From Bilabrum cf. latius (taxonomy: Eukaryota), in contig OZ237753.1 in assembly GCA_965178125.1 (NCBI GenBank), positions 62,001 to 126,000 on the forward strand: a stretch of 64,000 nt of DNA. Direction: 5' to 3'. Under the pieces are notes generated by a model. It was not told the origin of the DNA and searched no databases. It saw only the letters and a list, made by a program, of their open reading frames with translations. The position numbers were made by a program, and so were the translations under genes. Numbering within the stretch: the stretch's first letter is position 1; the number at the start of each line of letters is the position of its first letter. Below are positions 1 through 64,000 of this stretch, one piece after another.

Positions 1-3000
1 AGGGCCACCGCATGCCTGGTTTCCCCCTTGCGGCCGGCCACCACCACGAGAGCGTCCACCAGGGCCAGTGGGCTGCTGGCCACGGCCAGGCCGAGCCCGG
101 CCCCGCCTGCCTCTCCGTGGTCACCCGACAGGCTCGTGAGGCACTGTGCCGCGCCGGCAACCAGCGATCGGAGCCGCCCGCACGCCTCGGGGTGTCCCCC
201 CGTCACGCTGGCCCCAGCCACGGCGTCTGCACCGCCCATCTGCGCCAGCAGCCGAAGCACCACCTCGGGCGTGTGGACCTCCACCAGCCTGGCCCGACAG
301 GCCCCGGAGGCCAGCGCGGCGGCCCCGACGAGCCCGAGGCACTGCTGCACCGCGAGGAACCTCCACCGGCACATGGACTCGTCCTCCGCACGCACCGCCA
401 TCTGCAGAGGCCCGTCTGTGGGCGGCAGCGCAGTGGACCTGGAGGCCTGCTTGCCCTCGGAATCCAGGGCGCCTGACCTGCCCGTGTCCCCGTACGAGAC
501 ACCAGCCAGCCGCTGTGCATGCCCCGCAGGGATCTCGCGGGAGAGCGCCGGCACACCGGCCAGCTCCGCCAGCCGCGGCAGGTCGGCCAGGTTGCAGTAC
601 TCGTACACGAGCCTCGAGGCGGCCGCCAGCGCCATCCCTCGGCTGATCGCTTCCTGCCCCGCCTCGTGCTCGCAGAGGGCACGCAGGCACCTGGACGCCC
701 ACAGGGTCTGCTCCAGGGCCTGCGGGGTCACGGCCCCAAGCCCCTGCGCGTTGCAGTACCTGGCCATCGCGTCCAGCACGCCGGTGCAGGCCTCCACCGC
801 GCCCGCCCGCAGCATGGCCGCCGCGTGCCGCTGGGAGGCCATCGTGGCCGCCTGCCCTTGGGCGATGAGGGCACAGCGCATGCACCGCATGGCCTCCACG
901 ACCAAAGAGTGCCGCCCCGGCGTGCTCACGTGGCCGGTCAGCAGTGCCACCGACTGCCTGAGGCTGCCCAGCGGGAGCGGCTGGCCGGTCAGCGACACGC
1001 CGCCCGAGGCCGCAGCGGCGGCGGTCCCCAGCTCATCAGGGGACGCTGGACCCAGCCGTCCGTTGGTCACGTCGCGGGCCAGCGACGCCACGGCCGCCAG
1101 CTGTTCCCCGATCTGGGCCGTCTGCATGTCTCTGCAGCACAGCAGGCAGGAGCAGTAGGCGCGCGCTAGAGTCGCACGCACCGCGTCGATGGCGAGACCT
1201 TCCTCCGTCTTCTCGCGGCCCTCTGCCGGTGCACGCGTGGCGCTGAGCATCGCCAGCTGCTGGCAAATGGCCGGCCCCACCTGCTTTGCGAACATGGCGC
1301 TCTGCGTGTTCTGCAGCAGCACCAGCGGCACGCCCGCGGGAATGGCGCTCTCGTCGCCAAGCTCGGAGAACAGTGGGAGAGGGGCCGTGGCGGATGCGGC
1401 GCTGGCAGCGCTGGCCGCCTGCCCTGCCGCTGCACCGCCCCCCGCACCTGCCCCCGCCCCCGCCCCGCCGGCCATTGCCAGACTCTCCCGCATGGCATGG
1501 GCCATCGCGGCGTCCCCGAACATGGCGGCGTGCAGCTGCTGTTGCTGCTGCTGTTGCCCGAGCCCGACACCCGTGCCTGTGCCTGCTCCAGGCCCCCCCC
1601 CTCGAGACACGGCCGCCTCCGGGGGAGTGGCCCCTTCCAGCTCGAGCTGGAGCGCGTGCCTGGCATACCCCGGCAGCCCCTGCCTGCCCCCAGGGGGCCC
1701 GATCGGCATGAGCGTGCCGTCGTCCGTCTGCAGGCCCCACAGGACGAGCGAATTCACGGCTGCGCCGGCCATCGCTACCAGCGGCGTGCACTCGTCACCC
1801 TCCTGCAGCAGCTGTGCCTGCAGCGCACCCACCACCCCGCTTTTCACCACGGCAGAGTCGAAGTCCTGGGACAGCAGCTGGTGCACCGCCGCAACCTCCC
1901 TGGGCCCGCTCCTGCGATCAGCCGCCTTCATCTGCGACTGAGCCGAGGCGTTGGCCTGGTACGCCAGGGAACAAGCGCATGCGAGCCGCATGCCCACCAT
2001 GGAGGCCAGAGCGCTGCTCCCAGGCGCAGACATGAGCTGCTCTGCCGCCCGGAGCAGCATCTCGGGCCCGCCGTCACCCTCCACTCTCACGAGCACCTCT
2101 GCGAACGTGCCGGGGGGCGTAACTACGGCGATGGTACTTGCTCGTGCTGCTCGTGCTGATGGGGCAGTAGATGCTCCCGCTGCATCCTGCGGCGGCATGG
2201 GCGCCGCTCCCTGGGCTGTCCCCCTTGCCTTGCTTGCTACCTGCAGCCCCGGCTTGCGCGCCAGGAGGCCAGTCGCGGCGGCGTACCCCTCCAGGCACCG
2301 ACTAAGCCCCAGCATCGCCCGCAGGTACTCGGAGCTGAAATCCTTCCCGCCGGGCGCCTTGGCTCCGTGCGCGTGCCCCTGCGCCGCCCTCCGGTGGGTC
2401 TCCTGCCGGGCATACAGCTGGAACCTCCTGAACGAGAGGAAGGCCTGCCCCGCCGCTGCCTGCTCCGCCGCGTCCGCCTCCGACCCCGCCTGCACTCGGG
2501 CCTCGCAGGCGTTCCTCGCGCTGTGGTGGATGCGCTCCGCCGCGAGCTGGGCCTGCTGCTTGCACAGCTTGCATAGGTACCCTGGCTCTGTGAGCTGGGG
2601 GGAGGCCCCGCATGAGCCCCCCACCGTCTCTGACCGGGTGCTGGCTCCCGGCCCATCCAGCGCGATGGCGTGCTTGTTGGTGTCGCATGCTGCCAGCACA
2701 AAGTACATCCCGCAGCTCGTGCACGTGTAGGCCCTGTTCAGGATCCCGAACGCCTGCCCGGTGCTGAAGCAGACGGGGTTGTCGGCGGTGGTGGGCTTGG
2801 CCGGGGGCAGCAGCTCCGGCGGCGCGAGCTCGCTGCAGGCGATGCGACTCCACAATTGGGCCGGACTAGCGGATGAAGAGGAGGGAGAGGGGCCCTAGCT
2901 TGGCTGGCCCCGGCCCGAGGCGGCAGCAGGGGCAGCAAAGCCTGCAATCGATTGTCCACCTGCTTGGGACTGCGGGGCTGCCCTCGCCTGCTCATTCCTG

Positions 3001-3509
3001 TCGCTTTCCTGCAGCGCAGCGATAGCTGCTGCATCTTCTGGGCTGAGACCAGACGTCCCTGCGGGCTGGACGCTCGCAGCAGGCTGCGGTTGATAGCCGG
3101 GAGTCTAGCTCGTTCCTGCCGTGCCCGGTGCTCCTGGGGGCTCCACACCTGCCTCTCCTGCATTATGCGAGGCGAAATCATACAATGGATTGTATTTGAT
3201 CAAAATGAATGTTTCTTCGCTGGAGATAAGGAGCGAGCTGCCGCAACATGAACACATAGCAGCCACACCAAAGTCTCCGTCTGCGACCCCTCACGATAAT
3301 CTGCCTCAGTAGGAGGTTCCCACTGAGTTTTCTGCTTTGCATGATTAATATAATACACTTTTCCTTGGTGGTGTCCTCTTTCCCAATCTGTGAGGCAGTA
3401 CAAGTAGCTTATAAGAGGATGAAACCGCGTGTGTATCGATCACCTGCAACATCGTACAAAAGCAGTAATTTGACTCACTTGGCGGAAGAGGTGTATTTGG
3501 ATCACTCAT
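1..3509 (-). CDS. WW-domain and FYVE-like zinc-finger protein, 3'-partial; exons 3509-3479, 3387-3295, 3157-<1
   Basis: Splicing at GTGAG...CAG introns gives MSDPNTPLPPNWERGHHQGKVYYINHAKQKTQWEPP, a clear WW domain. The last exon contains CFSTGQAFGILNRAYTCTSCGMYF...CKLC (FYVE-like). In-frame TAG at 3107-3105 and 2897-2895 lie in a Q/P-rich linker. The frame appears open to the window edge. Confidence 0.8.
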
Positions 3510-3681
3510 AATCACCTACGGCAAGGATTGAGTGGTGTATTTGAAGTAAAATGTGCTGAGTTGCACTCTGGTATCCCCGCTTGTTCAGATCCGGACAATT
3601 CTCGGAAATGCGAACATTCATGAACCCGACTAGTCCAATCCGGAGCGCAAATGGCCCACGGCGTTGGGTTAAACAATAGTC

Positions 3682-4884
3682 ATGGCAGCTACACTAGCGG
3701 TCATATTTATTCTCGTATCAAATATCGGCGCCGCTGTGATCCGATAGCCGGCCCAAGTCGAGCGACAAGATTCATCGCCGGATGTAGCTTGTGCAGCCCG
3801 ATTGATCGTTGCTGCATATGAACAACTGCTACCATGGCTCCACCCGAGGGATGTTGGGGCCCTTGGGATGTTATTCTGCTCTAGTGCAGGTAATCCTTAC
3901 CTGGAGTATGGCAGCGGCGGTTCTACTCGAATGGCTGTCGCGTCGAAATTGCTGCACTCTCGTGGACGAGGGCAGCAGAATACGCTCGTAGTTGAAGGTA
4001 GTTAGCAGTTTTTGGCCGATTTAATAGCCAAAATTGCATCTGATGTGCAGGAATTACAGCCCGGGACCCCGCCCATGTTGCTGACGACGTCACCGTTCAT
4101 GGGCCCAGTGGGTGCCTGGAGCTACCCAACCGGAGCAAACATCGTGCGCAACAAGAATGGGAAGCCGGTCCTTTCGCAGCCCAATCCGTATGCGCACGCC
4201 TACCCCATGTACTCCAGGGCCGGCCAGGAGCTGATGCGCCAGTCCGCTCTCCTGCAGCCGGAGGCAAGTACTGAGCGACCCCACCCAGAGGGAGGGTGGC
4301 CCGTTGGGCTGTTCGGGGAGGTTGCGGGTCTGAAGGACAGGAGCGTGCCGGAGCTGGTGCTGGTGGACGGCCGATTCCGAGTTGCCTGCGTGCTTCGGGT
4401 GATCAAGGAGTGGGGAGACGTTCCCTTGATCCTGCTGGACGACTTCAACGAGAGGCAGAGGTCCTACGGGTCAGTGCTGCGGTTCGCCAAGCCATGGCTG
4501 GGGATGGACCCGTTCTTGAGGGAGGGGCACGCAGCCATTGCAAAGGCAAAGGAGCTGAAGGAGGGAGGAAGCAAGTCGATGACCGACATGCAGCAGAAGA
4601 TGCTCGAGCAGTCCCTGCGGGGGGACGTCCCGCCGGTGAGCGAAGAGCAAGCCAGGCGGTACGTCCAAGAGGCCCTTCCGCCGTTCCTGGAGCGGTTAAT
4701 GCGGGACCTGGGGGGCGCTCCTGAGGGTTTCATCGCCCCGGACCAGTACGTGGACGAGGAGCAGCTGCACCTGCCCAGCATGGGCATGCGGCGGGGGCTA
4801 TGGATGAAGGGGCTGCCCAAGGGGCAGAGGGACGAGGCGGCGCTGGACGCTGCCATTCAGGCGTTCAGCTTCATCGCGCAGTGA
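3682..4884 (+). CDS. SAM-dependent methyltransferase-like protein with N-terminal signal/anchor (~400 aa)
   Basis: One frame when TAG 3745 and 4003 are read through. Hydrophobic N-terminus MAATLAVIFILV; motifs YLEYGSGGST, LVLVDGRFRVAC and ILLDD; ends TGA TGA. Confidence 0.7.
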
Positions 4885-7087: not shown

Positions 7088-8434
7088 ATGCTAGGATACA
7101 TTGCGGTAGATCAGCGGTCCTTACGGCACCTCGCATCATATGAGCATGGCGAGTACGCAGGAGGTTCATCGAGCAGTCGATTGATGAGCATTGGCCCGAT
7201 GCTAGCTGCTCTGCACCGCTCTTGCTAGCTTGGGCCTGCCCCACCATCTGAATCGAAGGATCGACCGCGTACATGCTTGCCGGTATACGTTGATACTGGA
7301 CTATTTCGAGTGGCCTTCGCTGTGTCGGCTGTTCCAAAGCCAGGCGGGGCCGCAGCATTGTCCCGCCTGTCAGTGGAGCACGTGCTCGGTATATGTGTAG
7401 GATCTAGTGAATACGATAGAGAGCTCTTGCTGCGCCTGAGTGCTGAGATTACCACAAAGTTTGTCTAGCTCGCTGGAAACTCATTAGCCGAGGGACGCCT
7501 GAAACGCTTTAAGAAGTTTACAAGGTGGTGCAGCACATTTATTATTGACAGTTTGACGAGCTCCGCCTAGGAGGGAACAAGCGGGCCAGCTGCTGCTTAG
7601 TCTCAGGCGGAACTGCCAGGAAACGACGGGATGGACTACCTCCTCGATTGCGGAGCCTCCAGCCGTTTCATGAAGCGCAAGCGAAGATTGAAGGAATGCT
7701 TTGACCCAATTGATCCTGGTCATTCTTTAGCTGAAGGAGCCGCAGTGTCTTCATCCGGAGCTGAGGGTGAGACTGCGATTGCGTGTGCGAAGCTGTCGAG
7801 GTCAGCAGCTGATCCAACTACTAGACTTGAAGCGAGCACAGCGGCCCGGGGCACGGCTGATGGTATCGGTAGTGACGGTGCATCTAGCGCGCCATCATTA
7901 CCTTTTGCAATTAGAAGCGGCTCAGAAACCGCATCTCACGGTGCGAGCACAAGGGCACGGGCACAAGGAGGGGCACGGGCACAAGGAGGGGCACGGGCAC
8001 AAGGAGGGGCACGGGCACAAGGTGGGGCAGGGGCAGGGGCAGGGGCAGGGGCAGGGGCAGGGGCACAAGGTGGGGCAGGGGCAGGGGCAGGGGCAGGGGC
8101 AGGGGCAGGGGCAGGGGCAGGGGCAGGGGCAGGGGCAGGGGCAAGGGCAGGGGCAGAGGCAGGTCGCCCGCGTGCAGGCGGCACAATCGCAAGCGATACT
8201 GGCGCTGGTGGGCATCACGGGACACCCAAGACGCCGGGTCACTCTAAGTGCGATCCCGACGGCGGTTCGCTGCGCCCAGCCGAGGGCACGCCCATGCCCA
8301 GCCAGGCCGCAACAGTGGGGTCCGGTGCTGCCCCTGGTACTGCCCTCGGTATGGACACTGAGGGGGGCACAGATGGGGGTGGGGGTGGGGGTGGCTTCTT
8401 GGCTTGGCTCACGGGTAGGCGACGGCCGGGGTGA
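7088..8434 (+). CDS. Hypothetical protein (~448 aa) with a Gly-Ala repeat tract
   Basis: ATG directly follows an in-frame TAA. One frame joins ORFs 7277 and 7631 once TAG 7226, 7466, 7568 and 7598 are read through; ends TGA. Confidence 0.6.
7953..8157 (+). repeat. Coding tandem repeats: 18-bp unit about x4, then (GGGGCA)n
   Basis: GGGGCACGGGCACAAGGA-type units followed by GGGGCA hexamers, encoding GARAQG and (GA)n. Confidence 0.9.
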
Positions 8435-8602: not shown

Positions 8603-10825
8603 TCAGGCTGCATTGTACGAGCACCGGTCCAAGCACCTGCTCATGGCATGCATCCTGTGCCACGACCCTGGCCCCGGCTACTGCTGCCATGCAAAGCACC
8701 CCGAGCTTGTTCCCTCATTCCCCTCCGCGTGCCCCTGACCATCCACCCTGCTTCCCCCCTTGCCCCCACCACCGCTCCCTTGTTCCCCAAGCAGCTTGTC
8801 CATCCTCCGCAGGTCCTCCCTATACCCCACCACCCTGTTTCGCCACTCCACGACTCCCACCAGCCGGTCCAGCAGCCACTGACCCAACGCCTCCAACCAC
8901 CCCGTGCTCTCCTCCTCCTCCTTTCCGCCACCACCACCCCCCTGCTATTCTCCGACTAGCCCGTGCTCGGTCGCACGCCCGGTGATGTGCGGCGCCAGCC
9001 ACCACTCCTTGCTGCGTGCGCTCGACCCTGCCGCCCAGCGACCCACGGCATCTGCATGGCACCGCAGTGCAGTGCTGCTGTCAGAGGAGGGCTTCAGCGA
9101 CAGACCGCTGACTCCGGCCGCCGCCCCCCAAGCCCGCATGGCCGCCCGGCTGAGGCTAGTGGCCCTGTACGACGTCACGTGGCCAAACAGGGGCAGGTCA
9201 CTCTGGGCGTGCGACAGCCTCGCGGACACGAACTCGAAGGCGGGCTGGCCCGAGCCCGGGTCTGTCAGTGGGAGCGGGCCGTGGGAGCAGGCGCTCTTGA
9301 TCGGGGCGCTGCGGGCCACTTCACCGTCATATCCTGAGGTTGCAACCGCTTCACCACGAGTTGCAACCGTCCCGCTCGCCTCTGCAAAGGCCGACTGGTC
9401 CCTCCTGTGCAGCCCGCTGCGGATGAGAGCGTCCCAGGCCCGCATGCAGCGGTCTGGGGGAACACTGGGCAAGGATATGGATCGAGATGCGGTGCTCTGG
9501 GCAGGTGCGTTGGCAGCAGCACCAGCACTGGCACCAGCTACAGCGCTGCTGCTGCCAGCTGGCTGCCGCTGCCCAACCCCCCCCACAGCGATGCTCGCTG
9601 CGCATGGCCGCCGTACGACCGCGATGGAGTGTGACGAGTTGCGGGGCCTGTCGGCGTCAGCCCAGCGTCCCTGCGGCGACGCGTCCCTGCCGTCGGGATC
9701 GACCCACTCGTCACACCAAGGGCCGAACCCCACCCCATGGACAGCCCACCCCGCCATGCACTCTCGGACGCAGGCTCTGCTGCGGCCACCAGCCCGCTCG
9801 TTCGGTGGCTCTGCTGCGGCCATCGCGTGGGACCGCTCCAGTTCCAGCACTTTCCCGGCAGGGTACCCCTCACCCTAACCCTCGAGATCTCTCGATAGCC
9901 AGTAGCTGCCCCGCCCCTGCCACGCGCAGAACCCGATGGCGTCCTGACGTGCCACACGCGGCGATGCCTGGCACCTGAGGGGCCCGCATGGAGAGTCCCC
10001 TGGGCGAACGTTCGCTGCTATGCTAGGGTCAAGCGGGCTGCCCTCCGCGAACCCCGGGCGTGTCCACATGAGTAGGACGCCGGTGTGCAGCTGCTCCCAC
10101 GGGAACTGGGGCTGCCTCGGCTGCGGGAAACCGCACACGTCGCCTCGGCGGCAGGACGGATCGCGGGCTGCCTGTTCGAGCCAGGGGTGGATCACCTGGC
10201 CCACGAGAATGTCGCTGTCTATGTACAGCACGGCGACGGGGTCTCGCCGGAAGCACCATCGCTTGGCGAGAGGCGTGCTGCTGCGCTGCTCGCCGGCCCA
10301 TCTCTGACACACCCTTGCCGATGCAACTGCGATTTCAGGCATTCTGGATTTCCAAGATTTCCGTGTCATCGTGATTGCCCGTCGCTCCTCGAAGACTGGA
10401 GTGCCTGCGCGCACCGGGACGTCCACCGTGTCCGGCAGCTCAACCAGATCTAACCACCCGAGGTCTCCCTCGCCATCCGCCTTAGCAAGCCGCTCAAGGC
10501 ACTCTACACCCGATCGAGTAGTCAGAATCTGTATCAACCCTCGCCATTTGCCATGATTTCGCAGCGTTGCAACTGTTGCGAGCAGCGAGTCCCTTCTGCT
10601 AGACTCGCCGATTGCGAGCACTGCGACCGCTGCCCAGTGCTCTGGATTCACACTGTGAATTTTCAATTCGTCGCCATGTGCACCGTGTCCTCGATTTCTG
10701 AGCCATGCCGGACCGAGGCTGGCAGAGTTCGCAATGTGGTGCCCCCCATGGATCGCCCCAATCAAGAATACTACAAACAAGCTGGACAGAGTTAAACAAA
10801 TGAAAGCTTTCTTTCTGTTCAACAT
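8603..10825 (-). CDS. Type II membrane GT-A fold glycosyltransferase-like protein (~740 aa)
   Basis: N-terminal TM anchor; VLYIDSDILV (DxD), LHTGVLL, RDQSAF and FGHVT. ORFs 10825, 9850 and 8896 share one frame, separated only by TAG (9877, 8947, 8680); ends TGA at 8605-8603. Confidence 0.75.
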
Positions 10826-11077: not shown

Positions 11078-13501
11078 ATGCGCCGATTTGTTCAAAGCCG
11101 TTTGCCTGGAACGTTATTAAGAAGAAAACACAACGTAGTTGGTGTCAATGCTGTTTCGAGATCTGCTCGAGGACTCCATTCCGTCATCCGTAGTCGCGTC
11201 CGATCTTGGGACCTGTCGTGGGCTCGAACAACTAGGCAAGCTAGAGCGGTACCGACGGCAACCGATTGGCTGTTTAGTACCGCAAGTTATGCATCCCGCG
11301 CTGGCGACAGCGACGAGGGTGCAAAGCGCAGGGGCTCTGAGAAAGCCGCCGCAGCAGCAAACAGGGCCAGCGCGCAGGCGGCCGCAGCCGCGGGTGCAGC
11401 GGCAGCAGCCGCAAGCACCGGCGGCATGCGAGAGGCCACAGGCGACTGGGAGTCTGCTCGTCGGATTCTGGGCGGCCTCGCGACGCACCTGTGGCCGAAA
11501 GACGAGCCCACGCTCCGGATGCGGGTACTCGCTGCCCTAGGGCTCCTCGTCGGCGCCAAGCTCGTCAACATCCAGGTGCCCTACATGTTCAAAGCAGCCG
11601 TGGACTCGTTAGGCAAGGCCGCGGGGCAGGATGGCGCTATCAAGGAGGGCGCAGAAACCGCCGCGCTGGCAGCCCAGGAGGCCCAGGGTGCCGTGGAGGC
11701 TGCGGGGCTGACGGCCGAGGGCATCGGGGGAACAATCGGGGGAACAATGTTCGCCCTCCTCGCGGGGTACGGCGTGGCGCGGACGGCGGCGGCGGGGATG
11801 CAGGAGGCCCGAAACGCGGTGTTTGCCACGGTGGCCCAGCGTGCCATCCGCAAGGTGGCTGGGGACGTGTTCCAGCACCTGCTCGATCTCGACCTGAGGT
11901 TTCACCTGGGCAGGAGGACAGGGGAGGTGAGCCGCGTGCTGGACCGCGGGTCCCGCAGCATCAATTTCGTGCTCTCTGCCATGGTGTTCAACGTGGTGCC
12001 CACGATTCTCGAGATCGGGCTCGTGTCCGGCATACTGGGCTGGAGCTTCGGGCCACAGTACGCTGCCGTGGTGGTGGGCACGCTGGCGGCGTACACCGCC
12101 TTCACCATCGGCGTCACCCAGTGGCGGACACAGTTCCGGAAGGACATGAATCGCATGGAGAACCAGGCCAGCAGCCGCGCGGTGGACGCCCTGATCAATT
12201 ACGAGACGATCAAGTACTTTGGGAACGAGAAGCACGAGGTCAGCGAGTACGACGAGAAGCTGGGAGGATATTAGGAGGCATGGCTCCGGACACAGACGAG
12301 CCTCAGCTTTCTGAACTTCGGTCAGAACGCGATTTTCTCGGTGGGCCTCAGCTCTGTGATGCTCATGGCCGCAGGGGGCATCATGCGTGGGGAGATGACC
12401 GTGGGTGACTTGATTCTCGTGAACGGGCTCTTGTTCTAGCTGTCCGTCCCCTTGAACTTCATCGGGTCCGTGTACAGGGAGGTGAGGCAGGCCCTCATTG
12501 ACATGGAGCAGATGTACGCGCTGAGGGACACGGCCCCTGACGTGGAGGACGGGCCCGGGGCGAAGCCGCTCGTCTTCCGGCCCGGCCGTGGGGGGGAAAC
12601 CGATGTGATGAGTGCGAGCACTGGGGCGACTGCAGTTGCACCGGACGGTCAGTGGGAGGGCGCGACGGGGCCCGGGCCCGTGGGCGAGATCAAGTTCGAG
12701 AACGTTCGTTTCAGCTACGACGGGCACCGGGACATCCTGTCCGGCCTCAACCTCACGGTCAAGGCCGGCCAGACCGTGGGCGTGGTGGGCCCGAGCGGCT
12801 GCGGCAAGTCCACCTTGGTTCGTCTCGTGTACCGTTTCTTTGACCCCCAGGAGGGGCGCGTGCTGGTGGATGGGCAGGACGTGCGGGATGTGACGAGTGC
12901 GTCCCTGCGCCGCGGGCTGGCGGTTGTCCCCCAGGACACGGTTCTGTTCAACGACACGCTGTACCACAACTTGCACTACGGGGACCTCGATTCGCCCCGT
13001 GAGGCCGTGCTCGAGGCGGCGAGGGTCTCCCGCCTGGAGGAGCAGGTGAGCAGGATGCCCCACGGCTACGACACGGAGGTGGGGGAGAGGGGCCTAAAGC
13101 TCTCGGGGGGGGAGAAGCAGAGGGTGGCCATCGCGCGGGCGGTGCTCAAGGGAGCCCCCGTACTGCTGTGTGACGAGGCCACGTCCTCTTTGGACACCAC
13201 CACGGAGGCCAGCATCATGGGCGCCCTCCGGGAGGTGGCAAAATCCAGGACGACCGTCATGATCGCGCACCGGCTGACGACGGTGATGGACTGCGACCAG
13301 ATCGTGGTGCTGGACCAGGGCAAGGTGGAGGAGCAGGGGACGCACGAGCAGCTGCTCGAGAGGAAGGGGCTCTACTGGAGCATGTGGCAGCAGCAGCTGC
13401 AGGATGGCGGGGAGGACGGAGAACAGAGAATGGGAGGGACCAGGGGCGAGGAGGAGGCGGCCGAGGCGCTGCAGTCGCTTGCTACCGGGCCCCGGACTTG
13501 A
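11078..13501 (+). CDS. ATM1: Mitochondrial ABC transporter ATM1/ABCB7 (807 aa)
   Basis: Arg-rich presequence; TM domain ([33 protein letters not shown][TAG][14 protein letters not shown]); Walker [31 protein letters not shown]. In-frame TAG at 12272 and 12437; TGA stop. Confidence 0.95.
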
Positions 13502-51400: not shown

Positions 51401-54400
51401 CCCGTGATCGACTCGATCGAGCGCTTCAACGGGGCTGGGCTGTTCCCTGCCACGGTGAGTGGCGAGCCGATCTCGGTGGACCCCATGCCCGCCATGCCTC
51501 AGGACCGGCAGCTGAGCCCCGAGGGCGGAGACTACGTGGAGCTCGTGGGCCGCAACTTCGGGCCGTCGGGAGACAATCAGCTGCTGCAGGAGGTGCGCTT
51601 CGGCAACGGGGCCCACCAGTACGTGCTGCCTGAGTCCGAGTACCGCATCATGACGGACCACCAGAGGATCAGGGTACGGGTGCCCCCAGGTGTGGGTGCC
51701 AATATGCGGTTCGTGGTAGTTGTGGCCGACCAAGAGTCGCCCGAGTCCCAGTCCACCGTGTCGTATGCCGCGCCCGAAGTCATGTCAATCTCACCTGCCT
51801 TCGGGCACGCGCAGCAGGACGAAGAGAGCCCCCAGATGGTCAAGGTGACAGGCAGGCACTTCGGATTCGCGGACAGCCGATCCACGCTGACCGTCAACTT
51901 TGGCCACGCTGCAGACGGCACAATGACTGCAGGTATTGCAACCACGGAGCCCATGTCTGGCACTGCTCGCTTCGAGCCCGCGGCTGGCAATGCCACGTAC
52001 CCAGCCGGATACGACCGGGACGCTGTGCAGACGGTCAAGTTCGCGCTGCCCTCTGGAGTGGGCAAGGACAGGGCGGTGGTGCTGGTCAACTCACCCGCGG
52101 GCTTCCCCCAGCTTGCACTTCGCAGCGCCGTGGACATGTAGGCCTACACGACCATGGTGACCGAGGGACCCATCAATGCGTCCGTGGTGGTGACCGACCC
52201 CAAGGTGTTCACCTACCAGAACCCCTCGATCGACTTCCTCTCGCTGGATCCCATCGGTACCACGGGCCCGTACGCCAACCAGCGGGCCAACTTGTTCCCC
52301 GGACAGGAGGGCATCAAGCTGCTGCGCGTGTACGGCCGCAACTTTGGTGCCTCGGCGCAGGAGCTCAACGACCAGGTGGAGCGCAAGGTGCTCATCGCGC
52401 CCTCGGACGACCCGGCGGACTTCTCGGCAGATACGGGCCGCGTGCAGGTAGTGGACTGGACCGACACCGTGATTGAGGTCATGACCGATGTGGACTCCGG
52501 GTTCGCGAAGGTTCACCTGGGTTCCTTCTCATACGACGGTGCCATGGAGAAGAGCCAGACGTCTCCTGCCGCCCAGTACTACGACGTGTCCCCCCAGGTG
52601 GCAGGTCTGCAGGGAGCCGACGCCTTCAACACGGCGGGAGGGGAGATCCTCGAGCTCAAGGTGGCCCGCATCGGGCAGGCACAGAGCATCCAGGTGGACG
52701 TGGGCGGACAGCCGTGCCCGCTGGTGCTACCATCCGACCCGTCGCAGACTGTGTCCGATACCGACTTCCCCACTGTGATCCTACAGGCCCAGGTGGATGC
52801 CAATCCGAGCTACAACTCGCTCATTGACGCGGACAATGGAGGCATGCAGTGGGACATCGCCTGCGTGATGCCGGCTGGACCCCGCGGCGAGTTCGTGAAC
52901 GACGGCTCGCAGGTGCCGGTGGTGGTGCAGCGCTTCTCGGCCGGCAGCGATGGCATCGTGTCTGGTCCGCAGTATATCTCGTACGCGCCCCCGTCCATCA
53001 CAGAGGTACAGGTCTGGCACGATACGTCGGCCAACCCATCAGGACAGCCCGACGAGGTCTTCACTCCAGCGGACGGCGTGGTATACACGCCTACTCGAGG
53101 GGCCATCATGCGCATTGTGGGTGAGAACTTCGGACTGTGCCCCCAGGTGCGCCTCGGCTTCGGCAACATGTTCGAGATGGGCGAGCAGTACCAGGATGAG
53201 ACATCTGCTTGCAGGCACACGACCCAGGACCCGGCCCGCCGCAGCCGCTCGCACACCATGCTGGAGCTGCGTGTGCCCCAGGGCGAGGGCGATGGCGCGG
53301 ACCCAGCCCTGGGAGGCATGCCGTTTGCCTTCCGCGTGACGGTGGGCGGGCAGGACTCGCAGCCCATGGTGCACTCCCACACGCCCCCCGCCATTCAGAG
53401 CGTGACCCTCAACGGACTGCCCAGGGGGCCTACCCGCGGCGGTGTACGCGTGCTAGTGCGCGGCACCAACTTCGGCGAGCCCAGTCCGCTGCAGGTGGAC
53501 ACTGGAGTGGTGGCTCAGCTGGCCGTGCACATCGGCCGCGACAGCTCTCTCTCCCAGGAACGAGCCGCCGAGCAGGAGATCACCGACACGAGCGCGCCCG
53601 GCATGCTCAACTGCTCCGACCCCGTGCGCATCCCCGCGCCCGCCAACCGCCCCGCCTACGACGAGATGGAGTGCACTCTGGCTGAGGGCACCGGTGCTCG
53701 TCTGGATGCAGTGGTCAGCGTGGCAGGCGTGCGGTCGGAGCCGCTGCAGGACGCCTTCGCGTACATGAAGCCCTCCATCTCCGGCGCCACTGTGTACGCC
53801 GCCACTGCCAGCCAGGAGGTGGTGCAGGCCGAGGACGGCACCACGCAGGTGACGGTGCGCCGCGGACCTGCGGCGGGCTTCTACGAGGTCGAGCTGGATG
53901 GCGAGAACTTTGGAGCCAGAGATAACGACACCTCCTGCGCCTTTGTGGCATGGCCCAACAGGGACGCAGAGGAGAGCGCGGCGCCGCTGGGGACTCGCCT
54001 GCGGAACCTGGTGTGCGACCACTCGGAGACTGTGTACGGCGAGGGCGAAGTGTGGCACGGGCACGTGCTGAGCTGGACACACGACAGGGTGCGGCTGTTG
54101 ATGCCTCCGGGCGTGGGCATGCGCGACATCACCCTGCGTGTGCGCGGACAGCAGCCCGAGGGCGCCATGCAAGGGCCCAAGCTCAGGGGCATGCAGGCCG
54201 GCATCGAGGGTGTGGCGTTCCAGTACAACGACCCGGAGATCGACTCGATCGAGGCGCTACCCAACAGCGTGTTTGACATCCCCACGGCGGGAGGGGCGCA
54301 GCTCGTGCTCAAGGGCAGGAACTTCGGCCGCGGGCCCATCACCAACCCCAACGTGCTGCAGTCAGCGGCACAGACCTTCGTGGCGGGAAGCGTGCCACTG

Positions 54401-57400
54401 CCCCTGCATACCCCCGAGGGCGACGGCGAGCTGGACATGGGCACCAGCAGCCTGCCGCAGGGCGTGCTGCCCACGGCCGGCATGGCGGTGCAGTTCTACC
54501 GTGCCTGCCTCTCCGTGGCGCGAGGCCTGGATGGCACCTCCCAGCTGGGCCCCGACTCGGCCGTGGCGCAGTCGGAGCTGACCGTGACGGGCGCCGAGGG
54601 CTGCGAGTCTAGGAGTCTGTGGAGCCCGGGCCAGCCCACCATCGTGCGGCACCAGGATGACGAGATCGTGTTCGTGACCCCCGAGGGCCTGGGTACCAAC
54701 CGGGATGTGTTTGTGTCTTACTTCGAGCAGAGCCCGTCTGCTCGCGTGACTGACGGAGACGTGCTAGAGATCCGTAGCAACGTGCTGCTGGTCAACTACT
54801 CGAGGCCATTCATCACGTCCGTGACTCCGCAGACCGTGGAGGTGCGCGAGCTGGAGGGCAGGCACCCCATCACCATCAAGGGCAGGAACTTCGGACCCAC
54901 GGGATCCACCGAGGGCTGGAGCGAGGCAGAGCGCCTGTCTCGCATCCACATCGGAGCAAGGGAGTGCTTCATGCCGGGCGCTCTGCCCGAGGGAGCCCAG
55001 CGCTCCGTGGCCGAGGTGCTGGACGAGTTCACCGGGGACACTACCCAGCGGGCCGTGTTGGAGTGCCACCTGGACGCAGACACAGTGGGGCCCAAGAACA
55101 TCACCGTGCAGGTGGCTGGCCAGCGCCGCTTCGCAGACATCACCAGGCCGCCGCTGGTGCAGGTGGTATGTGACCGGGACTACTTTGGTCTGGAGGGCGA
55201 GATGTGCCTGCCCTGCCCCGAGGGAGGCGTGTGCGACGGCTACGACCAGTTCAACAACACGCACACCATGCCGAGGCCTTTGGAGAACTTCTACAATCTC
55301 AACTCGTCCGACTCCGCCAACTTCAACATGCTGCAGGTCTGCCCGCCGGGCCGGCAGGTGGTGGCGCCCAGGCACCCGCTGGACGAGGACGAGCCCGCGA
55401 TCCACGAGGGCGGGCCCAGGGACGTCTGTATCGTGGCGTGCGAGCCGCAGTGGGCGTGCGTGGGCGACAACTTCTGCGCCCGAGGGTATGCCTCCAAGGC
55501 GCCCATGTACAGGTGCGCCAGCTGCGACACGGGCTTCTACAGGCGCGCGGGCGAGTGCGTCAAGTGCCCCGACAATCCGTGGATCCTCATCGTGGCGTTT
55601 GTGCTGATGGCCATGACGGCCGGATGCGTGGGCCTGTGGCTGAACCGCAGCAAGATCAACATTGCGCTGATCGCCATTGGTGTGGACTACTTCCAGGTGC
55701 TGGCCATCTTCGCCAACGCCCGCGTGAGCTGGCCCCCCATGCTCAAGGACCTGTTCCACATCCTATCCGCCTTCAACTTGAACCTCGAGATCACGGCGCC
55801 CGAGTGCACTGTGCCCGAGCTGGCCTTCCAGACCAAGTGGTATTTCATCGTGCTGCTACCTCTGGCCGTCATCGCCATGGGCATGGTGGCCTTCGCGGCC
55901 TTCTGGCTGTACGCGCTCTTCACCAACATGCAGAAGGACCCCAAGGGGCAGCGGTACGCTCCTCTGGTGGCTGGCCTGATCGTGCTGCTGTACTTCCTGT
56001 ACCTGCACGAGACCAAGACCATCCTGGACGTGTTCAACTGCGTGCCCACCACACCGCCAGACGGACAGAAGTACCTGCAGGCCGTGTTCGAGCCTTGCGG
56101 ACAGAAGGGCGGCGTGCAGCTGCAGCTCATGCCCTTCGCCGTGATCGCGCTGATCGTGTACACGTTCGGCTTCCCCGCGTGGGTTGCCTTTATGCTAGTG
56201 GTCAACAAGGAAACCATCATGCTGGACCAGCTCAGGAGGGCCCAGGGACACGGATACACGTTCGTGTCATCCGATCCCGAGGCCATCAAGCAGGCCGCAG
56301 CATTCCGTGTCAAGTTCCAGCGTCTGTACTACTACTTCAAGCCCGAGTACTACTGGTGGGTCATGACCATCATCGCGCGCAAGGCTCTCATCGCCTTCTG
56401 CTCGCTCATGTTCAACACCAACGCGTCCTTCCAGATGGCCGCCACGCTGCTGGTCATCTTCCTGTGCTATACGCTGCAGGTCAAGTACAACCCGTACATG
56501 CCCCCAGCCGAGTATCAGGACACGCTCATCGACTGGGCCGGCAAGTCCGTGGACGAGGGTCTCCGCAAGGCCCAGGCGGACCGCAGCTCCTCGGATGCCA
56601 TCGACAAGGCCGCTGCGCAGAACTCGGCCAACCGCCGCGATGAGCTGCTGGACACCACCGGCATGGCCAGCACCGGGTCCATGGCGCGCGCCCAATAGAA
56701 CGGGTGCGCGGGCTGCCTGCAGTCCACGGGCTCTGCCGCCTTCATCATGTGCGCTCGATCCCCTGAGCTGTACTACTCGCTGTGGGACACGATCCGCACG
56801 CAGGACAAGAGGCAGGACAAGGCCAACCAGAGGTCCCAGAACAGCCTCAGCAGCACGCGCATCAACGCAGCCGCCGTGGATCCCAAGGACGTGATGGGCG
56901 TGATGGGCAGCAACGTGATGAACTGGAACACCGTGGAGACGGTGCTGCTGTTCTGCGCCATCCTCGTGACGCTGGGCGGCATCATGCTCGAGTCGGGCCG
57001 CTTCGACCAGGAGGGCTACCAGGACCAGCGGGACGCCATCACCATCATCCTCATGCTCATCATCATGTCATCCATCACGTACTACTTCACGGTCTTCGGG
57101 CTGGAGCTGTACATGCTGGTGACGGCCAAGGACCGCGCCCGTCGGCTGCAGCAGGCCAGCATCAAGAAGGTCAAGGAGGGCAAGGCCGCCCGCAAGATCG
57201 ACGTGGACATGTCCAACGCCGAGTACAGCGCCAACCCGCTCATGGACGTCAGCAAGGCCGGCAAGGACAGCGGCGCGGACGGCGACTCTGCTCTCCTGCA
57301 GAACATGCGCGGCATGATGGAGCTGGAGAGCCTGGACCGGCACTCGTGGGTGCGCCTCAGGGGCCAGTTCAAGGAGTTCGTGCTGTCGTACGAGGAGATG

Positions 57401-58040
57401 TCCAAGGAGTACGGCAGGCTGACCAAGGAGAGCATGCGGGCGGCAGCCAGCGGCGTGTCTCCTCTCGTGGGCGCCTCGTCCCCGCGTGTAGGGTCTGCTG
57501 GGTCCCCTCAGCTAGGCGGGTCAAGTTCGATGGGCATGAACCCCATGAGCCTGGGCATGGCTCGTGGGGGCAAGAAGAAGGAGTTCGGAAGGGCCGCAGC
57601 GTCGAGCCGCTCCCTGGGGCGGCGCAACAGCGGCCGCAACCCCCTCCTGAGGAAGGGGTCCATGAGCAAGGCGGGATCGGCTGCATCGATCGGAGTGGAG
57701 GAGAGCCAGTGAGAGAGTGAATCGTATCGAGGTGAGTCGTAACGACTCTTCAGCTGGCAGACAGAGTTGTGGAGTGCAGCGCGCAACGAGAGCGGCGCTT
57801 CAGCGAATGTTCGCAAGGCCGCGGTGGAATACCACGTGTCACCATGCCTAAGTAATAGTGCAGCCACCGTCATACAAGGGCGAAAGCCAAGTACGGTTGC
57901 TGCACGGCATGCGTGTGCACGCGGTTCTATCCGTGGCATGCGACGCGAAGCGCCGCCTCCACCCCGTCTTCACTCACAAGGACCATTATCTTGCGCCTTT
58001 ATGTTTGCCATTTTATACTTGTTTATGCATGCGATGCCAT
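45461..58040 (+). repeat. Segmental duplication, copy 2
   Basis: Direct repeat of 18872-31290. Confidence 0.95.
45742..57712 (+). CDS. Giant cadherin/IPT/9-TM surface protein, copy 2; exons 45742-46177, 46325-46744, 46835-46905, 47168-57712
   Basis: Same exon structure and domains as copy 1; 10 in-frame TAG; TGA stop; intron 3 is 162 bp longer. Confidence 0.9.
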
Positions 58041-58422: not shown

Positions 58423-59697
58423 TCACCTGAACCTCACGCTACATACAGGCACCGTGCACTCAATGCTGCCGGTGTCGTACAAATACGACGGGCATCCACT
58501 CGCTGATGGTGCTCCACAATCCCCTAAAGCCAAAGCTACAGGGTTGGCATCACCATTTGGTCTCCCCTCAGAAGTCAGCAAGTACCTCGGAGCGTCAAGT
58601 GCCCCGGTGCTGCACGCACCAGCTCCACCTGCTCCCGATCCCGCGAGGCCGCTGCCACTGGCAAGCACGCCGTGAGCGACCGACGGGGCTGGTGCTTCCC
58701 CCATGAAGTGCAGAGGGGCCTCCCTCCTGCTCCTCCTCTCCCTGTCGAGCACCTCCTCGGTCAGCCCAACCTCGAGCAAGGAGGGGCGGTCTAGCTCAAA
58801 CCAACGGCAGCCGGCGGCCCGCTGTGCGCTCGACGACGAGGAGCCAGGCACTGAGGTACCATCGCTCTCTTTCCGTTCCATCACGATCACGGCGCAGTTC
58901 TTCGGGTTTGTCGTCATCTCGAACAACTCCTTGCTCCAGTGGAACCAGCGCATGAGGATGACGCGGAGGGTGAGGCCGTGTGTGACGATGACCACGCTAC
59001 TGTTTTCGATGTCCACTCCCGTGTTTTGCTGGCACGATGAATCAGTCTGCTGCTGTTCGCTGGAGCTCCACGCCCCGGTCCCACGGCCAATCTGCGGGCC
59101 GCTGTCGAAGACCCGAAACAGCGTGTCGAAGAAGCTGGAGATCCTGTCGTGGCAGTCTGCTGCAGACTCACCCTCTGCAGGCCTGTAGAAAAACTTTCCA
59201 ACGTCTCGCCATCCTTGCCAAATTGCCTCCTGCATCTCCCGCGTTTGCAAGTTGCCGAATTCTTGCTCGCGAAGGCGAGGGTCCTCCCTGACCTTGACAA
59301 CCTGAGACCGTGGCACCCTTGAAAGGACCCCCCGAAGAGTCTGCCTGGTTCTTGCGAATGGAGAGGCAAATACAATCAACGGACTTTCGCCAACTATTGA
59401 ACGAAGCTTATCGCCAGCTGCTACAGCTTGCTAGTACCCAGTATTCGTGAGCTGGAGGTCAGAATTTGGAGTGCTGAAGTACCTGGATTTGTCAATATTT
59501 CCAATGCTTTCTCCATGTCTTATCAAAACTATCCGTCTTGGAAGTCTTCTGCGCAATGGCCCATCATGTTCGGCTGAATTTGGCTAGGACTTCCGAGGGG
59601 CCCTCAGCACCACCAAGGTTGCGGAAGCAATACCAACCGCGATGCCCACGCCAAGCCCTATAGCTATATCTACTAGTCTGCGAGACAAATTTTCCAT
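58423..59697 (-). CDS. Histidine phosphatase (phosphoglycerate mutase family) with N-terminal TM (424 aa)
   Basis: IVLIRHGESIGN, LTNTGY[TAG]QA, SPFARTRQT, LREQEFG, GES and IVTHG. The catalytic RHG lies upstream of TAG 59433, so it joins the rest only by readthrough; second TAG at 59586; TGA stop. Confidence 0.92.
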
Positions 59698-59846
59698 GAT
59701 ACGGCCTGTTGCGGCTAATATGAGCAACTTGTTGCGTGTATGCAAAACCATCCGGAGCAAATTTTGCAGTAGCGAGCTAAATCATCGAAAAACAGTGTTA
59801 TACCTTGGGGGCTAGCTCACTCGATCAGGAACTTATCTGTGACCAA

Positions 59847-62800
59847 ATGTCATCTGATGACTCACCTATCTCGTTTATTCGTCAGGTAGGGGGAAGGCCT
59901 CCAGAAGAGGCTTTGGCGGGCCTGGATCAAGTTGCCACGGATCTGATCGATCTGGTGCAGCATGCGCCAGATTTTTGCAGATACTTGCTTCCAACGCTAA
60001 AAAGATTTTCAATAGAGTAGTGAGATCACGTATCTGTTGCAGGATATCCTACATCTGGTATCCTTTCCGCATGCCACCCAAGTTGCACGAGGTATTTCGA
60101 AAGTACATTTTGCTGCGCTATACTTGCCATTGACCGGACAGATTGGCGTGGCATGTCTAAATTATATTGTTTAAACACCACTGAGCGACTGCTTTGCCGT
60201 GCGTGTTACGTGAACGCCCCCGAGCATGGGCGACAAGAATTTGTGCATGAGGACGCGTCCCGGTCGCGACCGAACCCTGATCGGGAGCTGGCTGGCTAGT
60301 GGATGCACCCTGCGGCGCATTCTTTACTAATGTGATGTATGTTAATTGGCAGTTCTCGCGCTAGTATTGCTGCCTGTCTGCAAATGTTTGAAATCAAAGA
60401 TATCGAATCCTGCCGGCAGCGGCAGCTAGGATCGGAGATATCAACCATGCCTGGAGCCCAGCCAGGTCAACCGAGTTGTCGCCAACTATCTTCATAATTG
60501 AATTGCAGCGTGTGGTTATCTGCTTAGATCCGCTGGGGCGTGCTCACGCACACTTCTGGCTTTACATAATTTGTCAGGGCATCCCGAAAAGCTTATGCTT
60601 TGTTCTTACACGCATCGCTTCCCTCTCGCAGCCCATCCCCTGCCGTAAGGGAACTAGCCAGCGAGATCGTGTAGGCCTGCGCTGCTGCTTTGCAGCCCGG
60701 CACTGCAGCCGAGCTTGCAATGGACCCGTCGTCTGAAGAGAGCAAAGCAGCGGCGGCCGGCACCACCAGCGAGGTCGGCTCCGAGTCCGATTCGTCTCCA
60801 GGGAACAACGAAGGCGGCGCGAGGGGCGATAGCTCCGCGCTGCCCCCGCTCCACTGGCGACCTCCACGGACTCTCGCGGACGTCCTGCGACAGGGTGCAT
60901 TGCACGCTAGTGCATTTATGCCGTGCAGGAAGGAGGAGGTGGTCGCAAACACCGGCCCAGTGGCGCAGCTAGCGGCCATTGAGGCGGCGGTGGCCTGCCA
61001 CGGCGGGCGGCTGCCTAACCTGAGCGCGCTCACGGCATGCCACCCCACGTGCCTTGAGGCGTTCACGGCCACTCACTCGGCCTTGTTTGAGGGACCCGGG
61101 CCCCTGCCAAAGCCCTGGAGGTACTTCATCGCGGTCATGGCGGCTGCCAGGGGCCGCAGCACTGCACTGCTGGAGGAGTATGTCGCGATGTTCTCCGCCG
61201 CTGGGGGTGACCCCTCTTGGGTGAGGGGGGCCAGGGGGTTGCAGCGGCGGTGGGTCGCGACCGAGGGGATACCCCCCCGAGAACTTGGGGGCGAACCATG
61301 GGCAAACGTTCCTTCCAAGCTGCGGGCCTTGGGTCGCATCAACGCCATCCTGTGCCACAGGCCCTGGGAGCTCAAGGAGGAGCACATCGCGGAACTCACC
61401 ATGCGAAAAGGCGCCGCGCAACGAGCCGCAGACGCTGCTGCCGCAGCTTCGCAAAGTTCCCAGCACGGAGAAGCAAGCTGCCGCGGCGCCGGTGGCAGGG
61501 AACATGGCAGGGAACATGGCAGGGAACATTCGGGAGGCTCTGCCGGCTCTCACCTGTCTGGTGGATCGCTGACCGCGGCGGAGTACGGAGCAGGTGTGTC
61601 GGCCGCGGCGCCGCTGCAAGTTCCGCAAGGGGCGGTAGGGTCATTACCACACGGTAGCATGCACTTGGAATCGCTGAGCAAGGGCACAGCGGAAAAGGAA
61701 GCGGCGGGTGGCGCAGCATCTGACGGCTTGCTGTCTCCATCGCAGGCAGGTGTGTAGGAGGGCCCCTTCGCTGTGCCCGGCCTCTCGTTCCCCAGCGGAA
61801 GCGGTGCGGCCGGTGCTCCCCATGCCACTCCTGGCGGTTCTGCCGGTGGGTTGGACGGGCGCCGCGCATCCGGCGGAACCTCGAGTCTGGGAGGGCAGTC
61901 CCCACGGGAACGGAAGCAAGAGCTTTGGAACCTGAGCCAGCTAGTGCACGCGCTCGTCATACTGAGCCACGTGCACGCTTAGTGTTCCCTGGCTCTGGGC
62001 TGCGGCATGCTCCCCGAGCTGGATGCGGCGTTTGTGGTCACTCCGGACTGGCTCTTCGCTGGGATGGGGGACACGGAGGGAGCTGCCCTTGCTGCTGTGG
62101 GGGAGGCCAGGGGCCGGGACACTGCGGAAGCACCGGGCCTTGCTGCTGGAGGGGAGGGGCACGCCACGGCTGGCGTCACGGACCCGGGCCGCCGCGGAGA
62201 ATCGCAGGCCGGTGCGGACAGAGCGCGTACAGCGAGCCTAGGCTCTGCGTACAGCGGTGGCAGCATTGGGGGAACAGCGGGTGAACCGAGCCACCTGAGC
62301 ACGGATGGTGGCGAGTCAGCAGGTCCTGGTGCTGGTGCCATAGTGGGTACTCAACGGACAGATTTGTTCTCTGACCAGGAGCTGTGCGACCGCCTGCAGG
62401 TGATGAAGGGCAGCGACAGGCGGAGAGTGACCGGAGTGACCATTGGGAGGCGGGCTGCGGCGGAGGGCGGCAGGGGCAGGGGCAGGGGGGCGGGAGGGGG
62501 AGACTGCGATGCTGATGCAGGGTACGATGACGACGAAGAGGGGGAATAGGACGACGAGGACGGCAGGATAGCAGCCCGCGGAGGAGACAGCGACGCTGAG
62601 GAGGACGCGTTCAGCGAGTCGGGGCAGAGCGGGAGGGGTCGGGAGGGCAGCGGCAGTAGCGGCAGCGGGGGGGCGAAAGCGTCTTCTGCCGACGACTCCG
62701 CGGGTGATGGTCAGCTGGAGTTTGAAGCGGCCGGGCTGACTGTGCCCCTGCGGTTCCTGCGGGACACCGCGGGGCCAGGGAACAACAGGTGGGCTGCAGC

Positions 62801-63470
62801 GGGGGAGAGTGATGGTGCTGGTGGTCGGTCGGGTGTGTCCGGCGGCGGTGGTGCAGCGCACGATGGTGCGGGGGAGGCTCCTCCCGGCGCCGCGCCTTTG
62901 GTTGCGGGCGGTGGCGAGTCGCTAGAGGTGCAGGATGCGGTGTCGAGGCAGGCGGACGACGTGGCCGCGTTTGGGGGCCCGCTGGGCATCGAGTACGAGT
63001 ACACTGACTTTCAGTGCAAGGTGGGGATCCACAGGATGCACGAGTTCGGCTGGGACAAGGAGGGGTACGCTCTCGTGCAGAGGTTTCTGCCCGGGCTGGC
63101 CCCCGTGCTTGATTCCGAGTTCTCGTCGGTGTTCGCTCTGACCTACCGAACGTTCGGCGAGAAGGAGGGGGTCGACACGCAGCCGTTCCGGTCCGGGCTG
63201 TGGCACTACGTGATGCGCCTGTTCGGGGTTTGCAACGATGATTTCCCGTACGAGATGGTCAACAAGATCGTGCCTAGGGAGATCAAGGGGTTCGCCAAGA
63301 AGGTCAGCTGCATCCCTTGGCTGATTCGGGAGGCGGATTTCCGGGGCTTCAGCTAGAAGCTGACTTCGGCCGAGAGAATACACGTGATCATGCTGGCAGC
63401 GGAGGCCCGCAAGCTGGCGTCGACTCTGTCGGCGCTGCGTGCCGTGCACAGGCACTTCCGGTCTAGATGA
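59847..63470 (+). CDS. SESN: Sestrin (PA26 family) with long low-complexity inserts; probable exons 59847-60019 and 60632-63470
   Basis: HPTCLEAF...GPLPKPWRYFIAVMAAAR, PSKLRAL..INAILCHRPW, WNLSQLVHALVIL, LTYRTF, DDFPYEMVN, ERIHV...EARK...LRAV. TAG at 60672, 61755, 61980, 62547 and 63354; TGA stop. The first exon is inferred from a GTGAG/CGCAG pair that keeps frame. Confidence 0.88.
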
Positions 63471-64000
63471 AAGAAGACGAGAGCGCAGTGCAGTGCACTG
63501 GGGCGGCAACGACTGCCAGCCTGAGCGGCTCGGCTGATGGCTTTGGTTGTTTCGAGCTGAATAGTTTTGGTGCTTGAGCGCAGCAGGTCCATCATGTCAG
63601 AATGCGGGGTTGTTTACACGCGCAGATTTGATTCTGAGGGTACAGGTTTTCAGGTGCAAAGCCTGCAGCGGCCGCCGGACGGCAATACAGTGCAGTGCAT
63701 CTATAGGTGCATTGCACTAAAGAGAGACATGCCGACGTCCATGTGTGACCCAAATCAGCCGTACTGCCTTAGCATGGCGTCAAGCCACAACCTGTTGTCG
63801 CCAAGTGGCGATCAAAATGATACATGGGCATGTGCCCCAACTGCAGAGACGTACAGCGTGGGAAAGGACAAGGTGGAGCGGACAACTGTTGCAAATTTGC
63901 GACGTGGGGGAATGGCGTGAGCAATTACTCGGAAGAATTTCAACGAAAATGTGCTTAGTGTAGCGAGCTGTGATACTTCATGAACTGTGTTGATAAATTG

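Follow-up and report, generated by a model that had tools for sequence, protein, structure and literature searches.

A likely UAG-only glutamine code in the nuclear genes of a probable stramenopile

According to a 2024 account (PMC11687900), only a handful of lineages are known in which a nuclear code change has separated UAG from UAA. As far as the cited portions of the sources describe them, UAG alone is read as glutamine in the fornicate Iotanema spirale, the ciliate Protocruzia tuzeti, and two phyllopharyngean ciliate lineages (PMC11687900; PMC5304391), as leucine in an uncultured rhizarian and some ciliates, and as serine in Scotinosphaera (PMC11687900). Codes in which both UAA and UAG (UAR) specify glutamine are listed there for many ciliates, Hexamita, ulvophyte green algae, Streblomastix strix, and Amoeboaphelidium protococcarum (PMC11687900). 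In crAss-like phages, a code-15 recoding with TAG as glutamine is described, in the portion cited, as a late-gene switch in bacteria (PMC9523058). Here, we analyze a 64-kb stretch of DNA of about 60% GC, hereafter the window, from the assembly of Bilabrum cf. latius (GCA_965178125.1, contig OZ237753.1, positions 62,001 to 126,000), in which genes continue through in-frame TAG codons. We consider it likely that UAG is a nuclear glutamine codon in this organism, that UGA is the working terminator, and that UAA is not a sense codon, being either a rare stop or effectively unused. A UAG-only glutamine code is NCBI table 15, and the window probably represents a new lineage, probably a clade, that uses this known but rare type of code.

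Compared with the UAG-only glutamine codes, as far as these sources describe them, the window is alike in that UAG would mean glutamine and UAA would not, UGA is a stop, and TAG stands on glutamine columns of conserved proteins. It differs in that the host is GC-rich (~60%), intron-poor, and probably a heterotrophic stramenopile, and in that UGA ends 10 of the 10 complete gene models, with no cellular gene having a UAA stop. The described UAR codes share with it glutamine at UAG and the UGA terminator, but TAA is absent here from 10,208 window codons and from 539 codons of a relative, where 5 to 7 or more would be expected. Uncoupling of UAG from UAA is also a feature of the UAG-only leucine and serine codes; the residue favored here is instead glutamine (+7.6 bits in the transporter ATM1, against −2.5 for leucine and +0.3 for serine). 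The phages, too, read TAG as glutamine, whereas the window carries nuclear genes with spliceosomal GT..AG introns. A full-text literature search, with subscription-only papers and supplements outside it, found no nuclear code change reported for stramenopiles, which fits the proposal of an earlier first-pass annotation, made from the sequence alone, that this may be an independent case of UAG as glutamine.

In-frame TAG codons and the genes that carry them

The data comprise the window, public run contigs aligned to it, and one related metagenome contig (L001). Start codons and RNA-supported introns were placed in the gene models before counting, and codon statistics were taken from 10 nonredundant models (10,208 codons). 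The first-pass annotation had reported about 50 TAG codons lying in frame, spread over 11 models that were free of in-frame TAA and TGA; after remodeling, the counts are exactly 50, 0, and 0, the absence of TAA and TGA being partly a consequence of how open reading frames (ORFs) are defined. The two copies of a cadherin/IPT gene hold 12 and 10 of these TAGs, orf965 holds 6, sestrin and orf448 hold 4 each, orf767 and the reverse transcriptase (RT) of a retroelement hold 3 each, and ATM1, a histidine phosphatase, orf1096, and orf403 hold 2 each. TAG makes up about 9% of the glutamine codons of the models, next to 362 CAG and 48 CAA in the 10,208-codon set.

When TAG is treated as sense, the longest ORF grows from 1,518 to 3,519 codons and the number of ORFs of at least 500 codons rises from 6 to 18, while treating TAA in this way leaves the ORF set nearly unaltered. 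Since the other two frames of the 10 nonredundant models contain 111 TAG, 29 TAA, and 362 TGA codons, the open frames are not an effect of composition. In-frame TGA is absent, against its 362 out-of-frame occurrences, and TGA terminates all 10 complete models (orf1096 leaves the window) as well as the gene of the relative, so the expectation that UGA had remained a stop held. At two C termini defined by homology, those of sestrin and orf965, termination is by UGA, and the L001 gene ends in TGA TGA.

Several of the genes are well-recognized families. The gene for an ATM1/ABCB7-type mitochondrial ABC transporter (11078..13501, plus strand) is intronless, spans 807 codons, has TAGs at 12272 and 12437, and ends in TGA. 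Its product matches the Pfam families ABC_membrane (1e-35) and ABC_tran (6e-34) and, as a full-length ABCB7/ATM3-type protein, AtATM3 in the PDB (1.5e-208). The sestrin (PA26) gene (60720..63470, plus strand; 916 codons) carries TAGs at 61755, 61980, 62547, and 63354; it matches PA26 at 1e-82 and the PDB entry for sestrin-2 at 4.8e-52, with alignment blocks that cross the TAGs at 61980 and 63354, and its TGA lies four codons past the end of the human sestrin-2 alignment. The branch 1 histidine phosphatase gene (58423..59751, minus strand; 442 codons, ending in TGA) has TAGs at 59586 and 59433, the latter inside the His_Phos_1 domain (7e-29). The lineage-restricted protein orf965 (14339..17149, plus strand; 936 codons, ending in TGA), with in-frame TAGs at 14963, 15731, 15737, 16475, 17033, and 17096, has 8 matches, all of them fragments, among 1.84 billion representatives. 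The first-pass annotation had stated that conserved domains continue straight through the TAGs. This stood for ATM1, sestrin, histidine phosphatase, and the cadherin region, where Pfam or PDB matches cross TAGs, but not for the region it called GT11-like: the Glyco_transf_11 match at the C terminus of orf965 is below threshold (19.5 bits against a cutoff of 23.9; E value, 6.5e-4), and no TAG lies inside it.

The largest share of the TAGs belongs to a giant membrane protein with cadherin and IPT/TIG domains, encoded by two tandem paralogs of 3,823 codons, each ending in TGA. Copy 1 (19157..30965, plus strand; 12 TAGs) has coding exons at 19157-19592, 19740-20159, 20250-20320, and 20421-30965 and a 5′ untranslated region (UTR) intron at 19008-19144; it matches TIG (1e-30) and Cadherin (5e-14), and its spliced frame is open throughout, begins with a signal-peptide-like N terminus, and gains two further TAGs. 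Copy 2 (45742..57712, plus strand; 10 TAGs) was modeled by mapping from copy 1, with exons at 45742-46177, 46325-46744, 46835-46905, and 47168-57712. The coding sequences are about 98.5% identical. Of the 170 base differences between the copies, 119 fall at third codon positions, and the codon differences are synonymous in 112 cases and nonsynonymous in 43. This excess of third-position and synonymous changes points to purifying selection on a reading frame that includes the TAGs, and 9 of 13 TAG sites are common to both paralogs.

The TAGs recur in contigs assembled from public runs (X4, X5, X6, and X8, from four studies), which were compared with the window over 11001-31000; all run sequences are contigs, from which rare variants have been dropped. 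ATM1 with both TAGs is present without a difference in contigs of X4, X5, and X8, and orf965 with its six TAGs is present without a difference in those of X4, X5, and X6, so that these 8 TAGs are unchanged across contigs of three to four runs from different studies. GT..AG joints at copy 1 of the cadherin/IPT gene, 5′ of the gene and within it, number four in X5, one in X6, and none in X4, which indicates that X5 and X6 contain spliced, RNA-derived sequence. A spliced X5 contig has G at 20696 and hence TAG at codon 401 of copy 1, and the X5 contig over ATM1 (about 10941-13631) is ungapped over both TAGs and ends where the X4 contig continues. The first-pass annotation had allowed that the TAGs might prove to be assembly errors or be removed by splicing. 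The data do not bear out the former, the independent contigs of four studies agreeing at the TAGs, and no sign of the latter was seen: the spliced X5 contig retains its TAG, and the X5 contigs over ATM1 and orf965 are unspliced and unchanged.

Two further observations concern the same contigs. In X4, a DNA-type run, depth over the 11.8-kb cadherin and IPT/TIG duplicate is 115 to 510, against 37 to 42 over single-copy genes, and the genome probably holds several further copies of this gene at 90% identity or more. Within 11001-17917, the sequence is identical over 2.6 and 3.6 kb in runs that carry different organism codes and come from different studies; this could reflect a frequent companion or contaminant of other cultures, or run labels that give the host.

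A more distant view of the code comes from the locus search based on orf965, which found one metagenome locus, L001, and none in prokaryote genome contigs. L001 (2,154 nucleotides; 58% GC) encodes an orf965 homolog of 46% identity in a frame that is open for 539 codons, with six TAGs and neither TAA nor TGA. Three of its TAGs stand in the run CAG TAG CAG TAG (CAG)5 TAG CAG, and another lies 7 codons ahead of a C terminus conserved with the window orf965 and with the database fragment P0187. The presence of the same pattern at 46% protein identity suggests that the code is shared between lineages with widely diverged proteins. TAG density in the L001 gene (6 in 539 codons) is above that of the window genes, and its bias in GC at third codon positions (GC3) is far weaker (15 GAA against 13 GAG). 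All orf965 relatives in public protein collections are fragments of 74 to 209 residues, several pairs of which come from contigs of equal size, and the end of one of them, P0184, coincides exactly with an L001 TAG. Both the end of P0184 and the fragment pairs fit genes cut at TAG by standard-code gene calling.

Glutamine as the probable residue at UAG

Glutamine is the best-supported meaning of UAG, as judged from alignments and codon exchanges. The ATM1 TAG at 12437 (site 464) falls in a column where each of the 120 homologs has Q. Measured against an unspecified residue (X), an ATM1 profile made from homologs gave +7.6 bits for Q, +3.2 for E, +0.3 for S, and −2.5 for L, Q being the best by 4.4 bits. 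At TAG 16475 of orf965, both available homologs have Q. The cadherin/IPT protein was compared with 56 distant homologs, keeping stretches locally at least 40% identical: Q accounts for 12 of the 35 residues aligned with TAG sites (34%), against 35% at CAG and CAA sites, with Q in 9 of 13 at site 813 and in 3 of 3 at site 1831, while six TAG sites had no usable alignment. In the histidine phosphatase, the column of TAG 59433 is occupied by K, Q, or D in PDB relatives. When the bits relative to X are summed over ATM1, sestrin, and histidine phosphatase, Q reaches about +9.2, followed by E (+3.8), K (+2.8), L (−0.9), and Y (−1.5), a margin of about 5 bits between Q and E.

The paralogs add a comparison at the codon level. 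Where the two cadherin/IPT copies differ at TAG sites, two pairs are TAG/CAG, one is TAG/CAA, and one is TAC/TAG, and the first two kinds suggest an ongoing exchange between CAG and TAG. The glutamine assignment of the first-pass annotation is thus supported by the invariant ATM1 column, Q at three further sites, these exchanges, and the TAGs within the CAG run of L001. By analogy with known recodings, a tRNA-Gln with anticodon CUA, one base from tRNA-Gln(CUG), would decode UAG; eRF1 would have lost recognition of UAG while keeping that of UGA and probably that of UAA; and new TAG codons would arise mainly through CAG-to-TAG transitions.

The status of UAA and the alternative readings

Several observations weigh against the code proposed here. 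Within the 64-kb window, neither a tRNA-Gln(CUA) nor an eRF1 gene was found, and 14 of the 50 TAGs lie in the retroelement or in models without homology support. Some columns point away from glutamine: that of ATM1 TAG 12272 (site 409) holds E in 96 homologs, Q in 23, and D in 1; the orf965 TAGs at 17033 and 17096 align with A and N and with K and H, respectively; and S, T, or A predominates at cadherin/IPT sites 864, 989, and 1212. In sestrin, whose TAG columns were judged by Pfam score alone, the scores are flat with a slight preference for leucine (L, 281.5; Y, 279.4; Q, 279.2; X, 279.0), and the histidine phosphatase profile does not set Q apart (E and R, 96.5; Q, 96.4; X, 95.0; Y, 94.3; L, 94.1; K likewise). 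A UAG that is sense but read as Glu, Lys, Leu, or Tyr, or as a mixture through near-cognate readthrough, could draw on site 409 of ATM1, the leucine preference in sestrin, the parity of E and R with Q in the phosphatase, and the TAC/TAG pair. We nevertheless regard it as very improbable in view of the invariant ATM1 column, the summed profile bits, the likeness of the residue spectra at TAG and CAG/CAA sites, and the TAGs within the CAG run of the relative. About as improbable is a context-dependent code of the type of Condylostoma and karyorelict ciliates, with UAG as sense within genes and as terminator near mRNA 3′ ends. Full TAG readthrough would indeed mask a terminator TAG behind a short, nonhomologous tail, and several C-terminal tails here are without homologs for comparison; yet the homology-fixed C termini of sestrin and orf965 end at TGA, in L001, conserved C-terminal residues and then TGA TGA come after the TAG that lies 7 codons from the end, and none of 11 such ends requires a TAG. 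That the TAGs are artifacts or decay (assembly errors, pseudogene mutations, or codons edited or spliced out) can be given almost no weight. The three TAGs of the frameshifted retroelement copy could be decay, the orf448 model is doubtful, X5 is labeled “RNA? (probably DNA),” and partial editing is possible, since the run data are contigs without rare variants. Against this stand the base-by-base identity of independent contigs from four studies, the purifying selection on the paralogs, the unspliced and unaltered X5 contigs over the ATM1 and orf965 TAGs together with the spliced one that retains its TAG, and the absence of in-frame TGA and TAA when 362 and 29 occur out of frame.

The remaining alternative is an ordinary UAR glutamine code (NCBI table 6 type), in which UGA would be the sole stop and TAA would be missing here merely because A-ending codons are rare at high GC3. 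It predicts TGA at every gene end, as is seen in the 10 complete models and, as an eleventh, in the relative’s gene, none of which ends in TAA. CAA is also scarce (48, against 362 CAG), a coupled change of UAA and UAG is the commoner one in nature according to the part of the account cited (PMC11687900), and TAA is an intermediate on one of the two routes that could link TAG and CAA in one paralog pair. However, if TAA were used like TAG, 5.3 in-frame occurrences would be expected from the CAA/CAG ratio (48/362) and 7.0 from pooled NAA/NAG, and none was seen in 10,208 codons (P of about 0.005 and 0.001, respectively); for the homology-validated genes only, 4.0 are expected and none is seen (P = 0.019). 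Out of frame, these sequences do contain TAA, 29 times. It is likewise absent from the 539 codons of L001 despite the much weaker GC3 bias there, and ORFs bounded solely by TGA extend the models only by short stretches 5′ of the first ATG. The first-pass annotation had named frequent in-frame TAA at glutamine columns as the mark of a UAR code, and the 0 in 10,208 window codons plus 539 L001 codons, a count whose power is limited by the GC3 bias, shows no such codons. We therefore hold the UAR reading to be improbable and clearly favor a UAG-only code over it.

What UAA does in a UAG-only code is a separate matter, and it turns on a DIRS-like retroelement with RT and tyrosine recombinase (31741-35349) that sits between the two cadherin/IPT copies. 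None of the window's cellular genes has a TAA end, a further point against the reading favored here, and the sole candidate TAA terminator is that of the tyrosine recombinase ORF of this damaged element. The C-terminal half of the recombinase (34000..34473, plus strand) ends in TAA at 34471-34473 and matches Phage_integrase at 7.8e-6 over profile positions 100-169 of 172, at 26.2 bits against a cutoff of 27.1. Directly past this TAA, coding signal is lost, the coding score falling from 0.048 to −0.56 and −0.11 and GC from 0.62 to 0.52, which argues against a sense UAA. The N-terminal half lies in a different frame (33186-34160), so this copy of the retroelement is frameshifted near 34000. Its RT ORF (31786..33624, plus strand), with TAGs at 32974, 33217, and 33607 and a TGA end, matches RVT_1 at 1.2e-5, below the cutoff, and lies in the top frame by codon usage, though with a weak score of 0.034. 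The earlier statement that UAA remains a stop is thus the least secure element of the first-pass reading: UAA is probably not sense, with 0 found against 5.3 to 7.0 expected, but its only candidate use as a terminator is in the retroelement ORF, in no cellular gene, and UAA as a stop is unproven.

Other features of the window, host lineage, and implications

The other models match no Pfam family. Orf1096 (3..3257, minus strand), which leaves the window, is open with its TAGs at 3107 and 2897 read through, and its frame has the top codon-usage score of the six (0.231); orf403 (3682..4884, plus strand; TAGs at 3745 and 4003, ending in TGA) likewise lies in the top-scoring frame (0.221). For orf767 (8603..10825, minus strand; TAGs at 9877, 8947, and 8680, ending in TGA), the score is the top of six but weak (0.042). 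Orf448 (7088..8434, plus strand; TAGs at 7226, 7466, 7568, and 7598) is a doubtful model with a low-complexity tail, its score being negative (−0.133) yet the top of six frames. Within it, 23 copies of a GGGGCA hexamer at 7987-8163 encode the Gly/Ala-rich tail. The ORFs at 4874-6103, 39429-40367, 42220-42984, and 18275-19168, all on the minus strand, were rejected as genes, with no Pfam family and no coding signal where scored.

Outside the genes, 3.5 kb at 35500-39000 has about 41% GC and no ORF of at least 130 codons in any frame, while the rest of the window is at about 60% GC, and 40430-41127 is a nearly perfect (GGAA)175 microsatellite (99% matches). High-copy repeats occupy 13669-14335 and 17671-19004, where the summed contig depth of X4 is about 2,000 to 3,600 against about 40 at the adjoining genes; the contigs of every run break at 14172 and near 17800-17917. 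The sole tRNA in the window, tRNA-Arg(ACG) at 17889-17961, scored 49.8 bits in a local scan, while a whole-window Rfam scan at the gathering threshold returned no matches and missed it.

The host is probably a heterotrophic stramenopile, to judge from its protein sequences. The closest ATM1 proteins are just 55 to 60% identical. In a quick ATM1 tree from an unfinished tree search (41 rows from 120 matches), the query, on a long branch, groups with Cafeteria and unnamed rows (SH-aLRT, 90), and this group falls within a clade of support 99 that takes in each of the four named stramenopiles and is separate from plants and insects. Named nonanimal matches of the cadherin/IPT protein are from Cafeteria (three), Hondaea, Triparma, Aureococcus (two), and one bacterium. 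The tree and these matches fit the first-pass suggestion of a probable stramenopile, a single-gene tree falling short of proof. A ciliate, fornicate, green-algal, or aphelid origin was set aside on GC content, GT..AG introns of 100 to 147 nucleotides, and the ATM1 tree.

A bolder interpretation, which we put forward as unlikely, is that stramenopiles here show their first nuclear code change and that it is old enough for a clade spanning the window's organism and the L001 lineage, at 46% identity in orf965, to have it in common, with UGA as the sole terminator of cellular genes and UAA neither sense nor stop. If it were true and UAA were effectively unassigned, a one-stop-codon state would have been reached by a route unlike that of the UAR glutamine codes. 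Under the more modest reading that we favor, with UAG as glutamine, UGA as terminator, and UAA not sense, standard-code gene calling truncates the proteins of this organism at each TAG. Such truncation, together with the fragmentary state of the relatives, implies that these genes are probably misannotated wherever they are found, including in runs labeled as other organisms. A further independent case in a GC-rich probable stramenopile and its divergent relative would add a data point beyond ciliates and metamonads, and it is relevant to the questions of how glutamine can take over UAG while UAA stays behind and of whether high GC, at which UAA is rare, eases that step.

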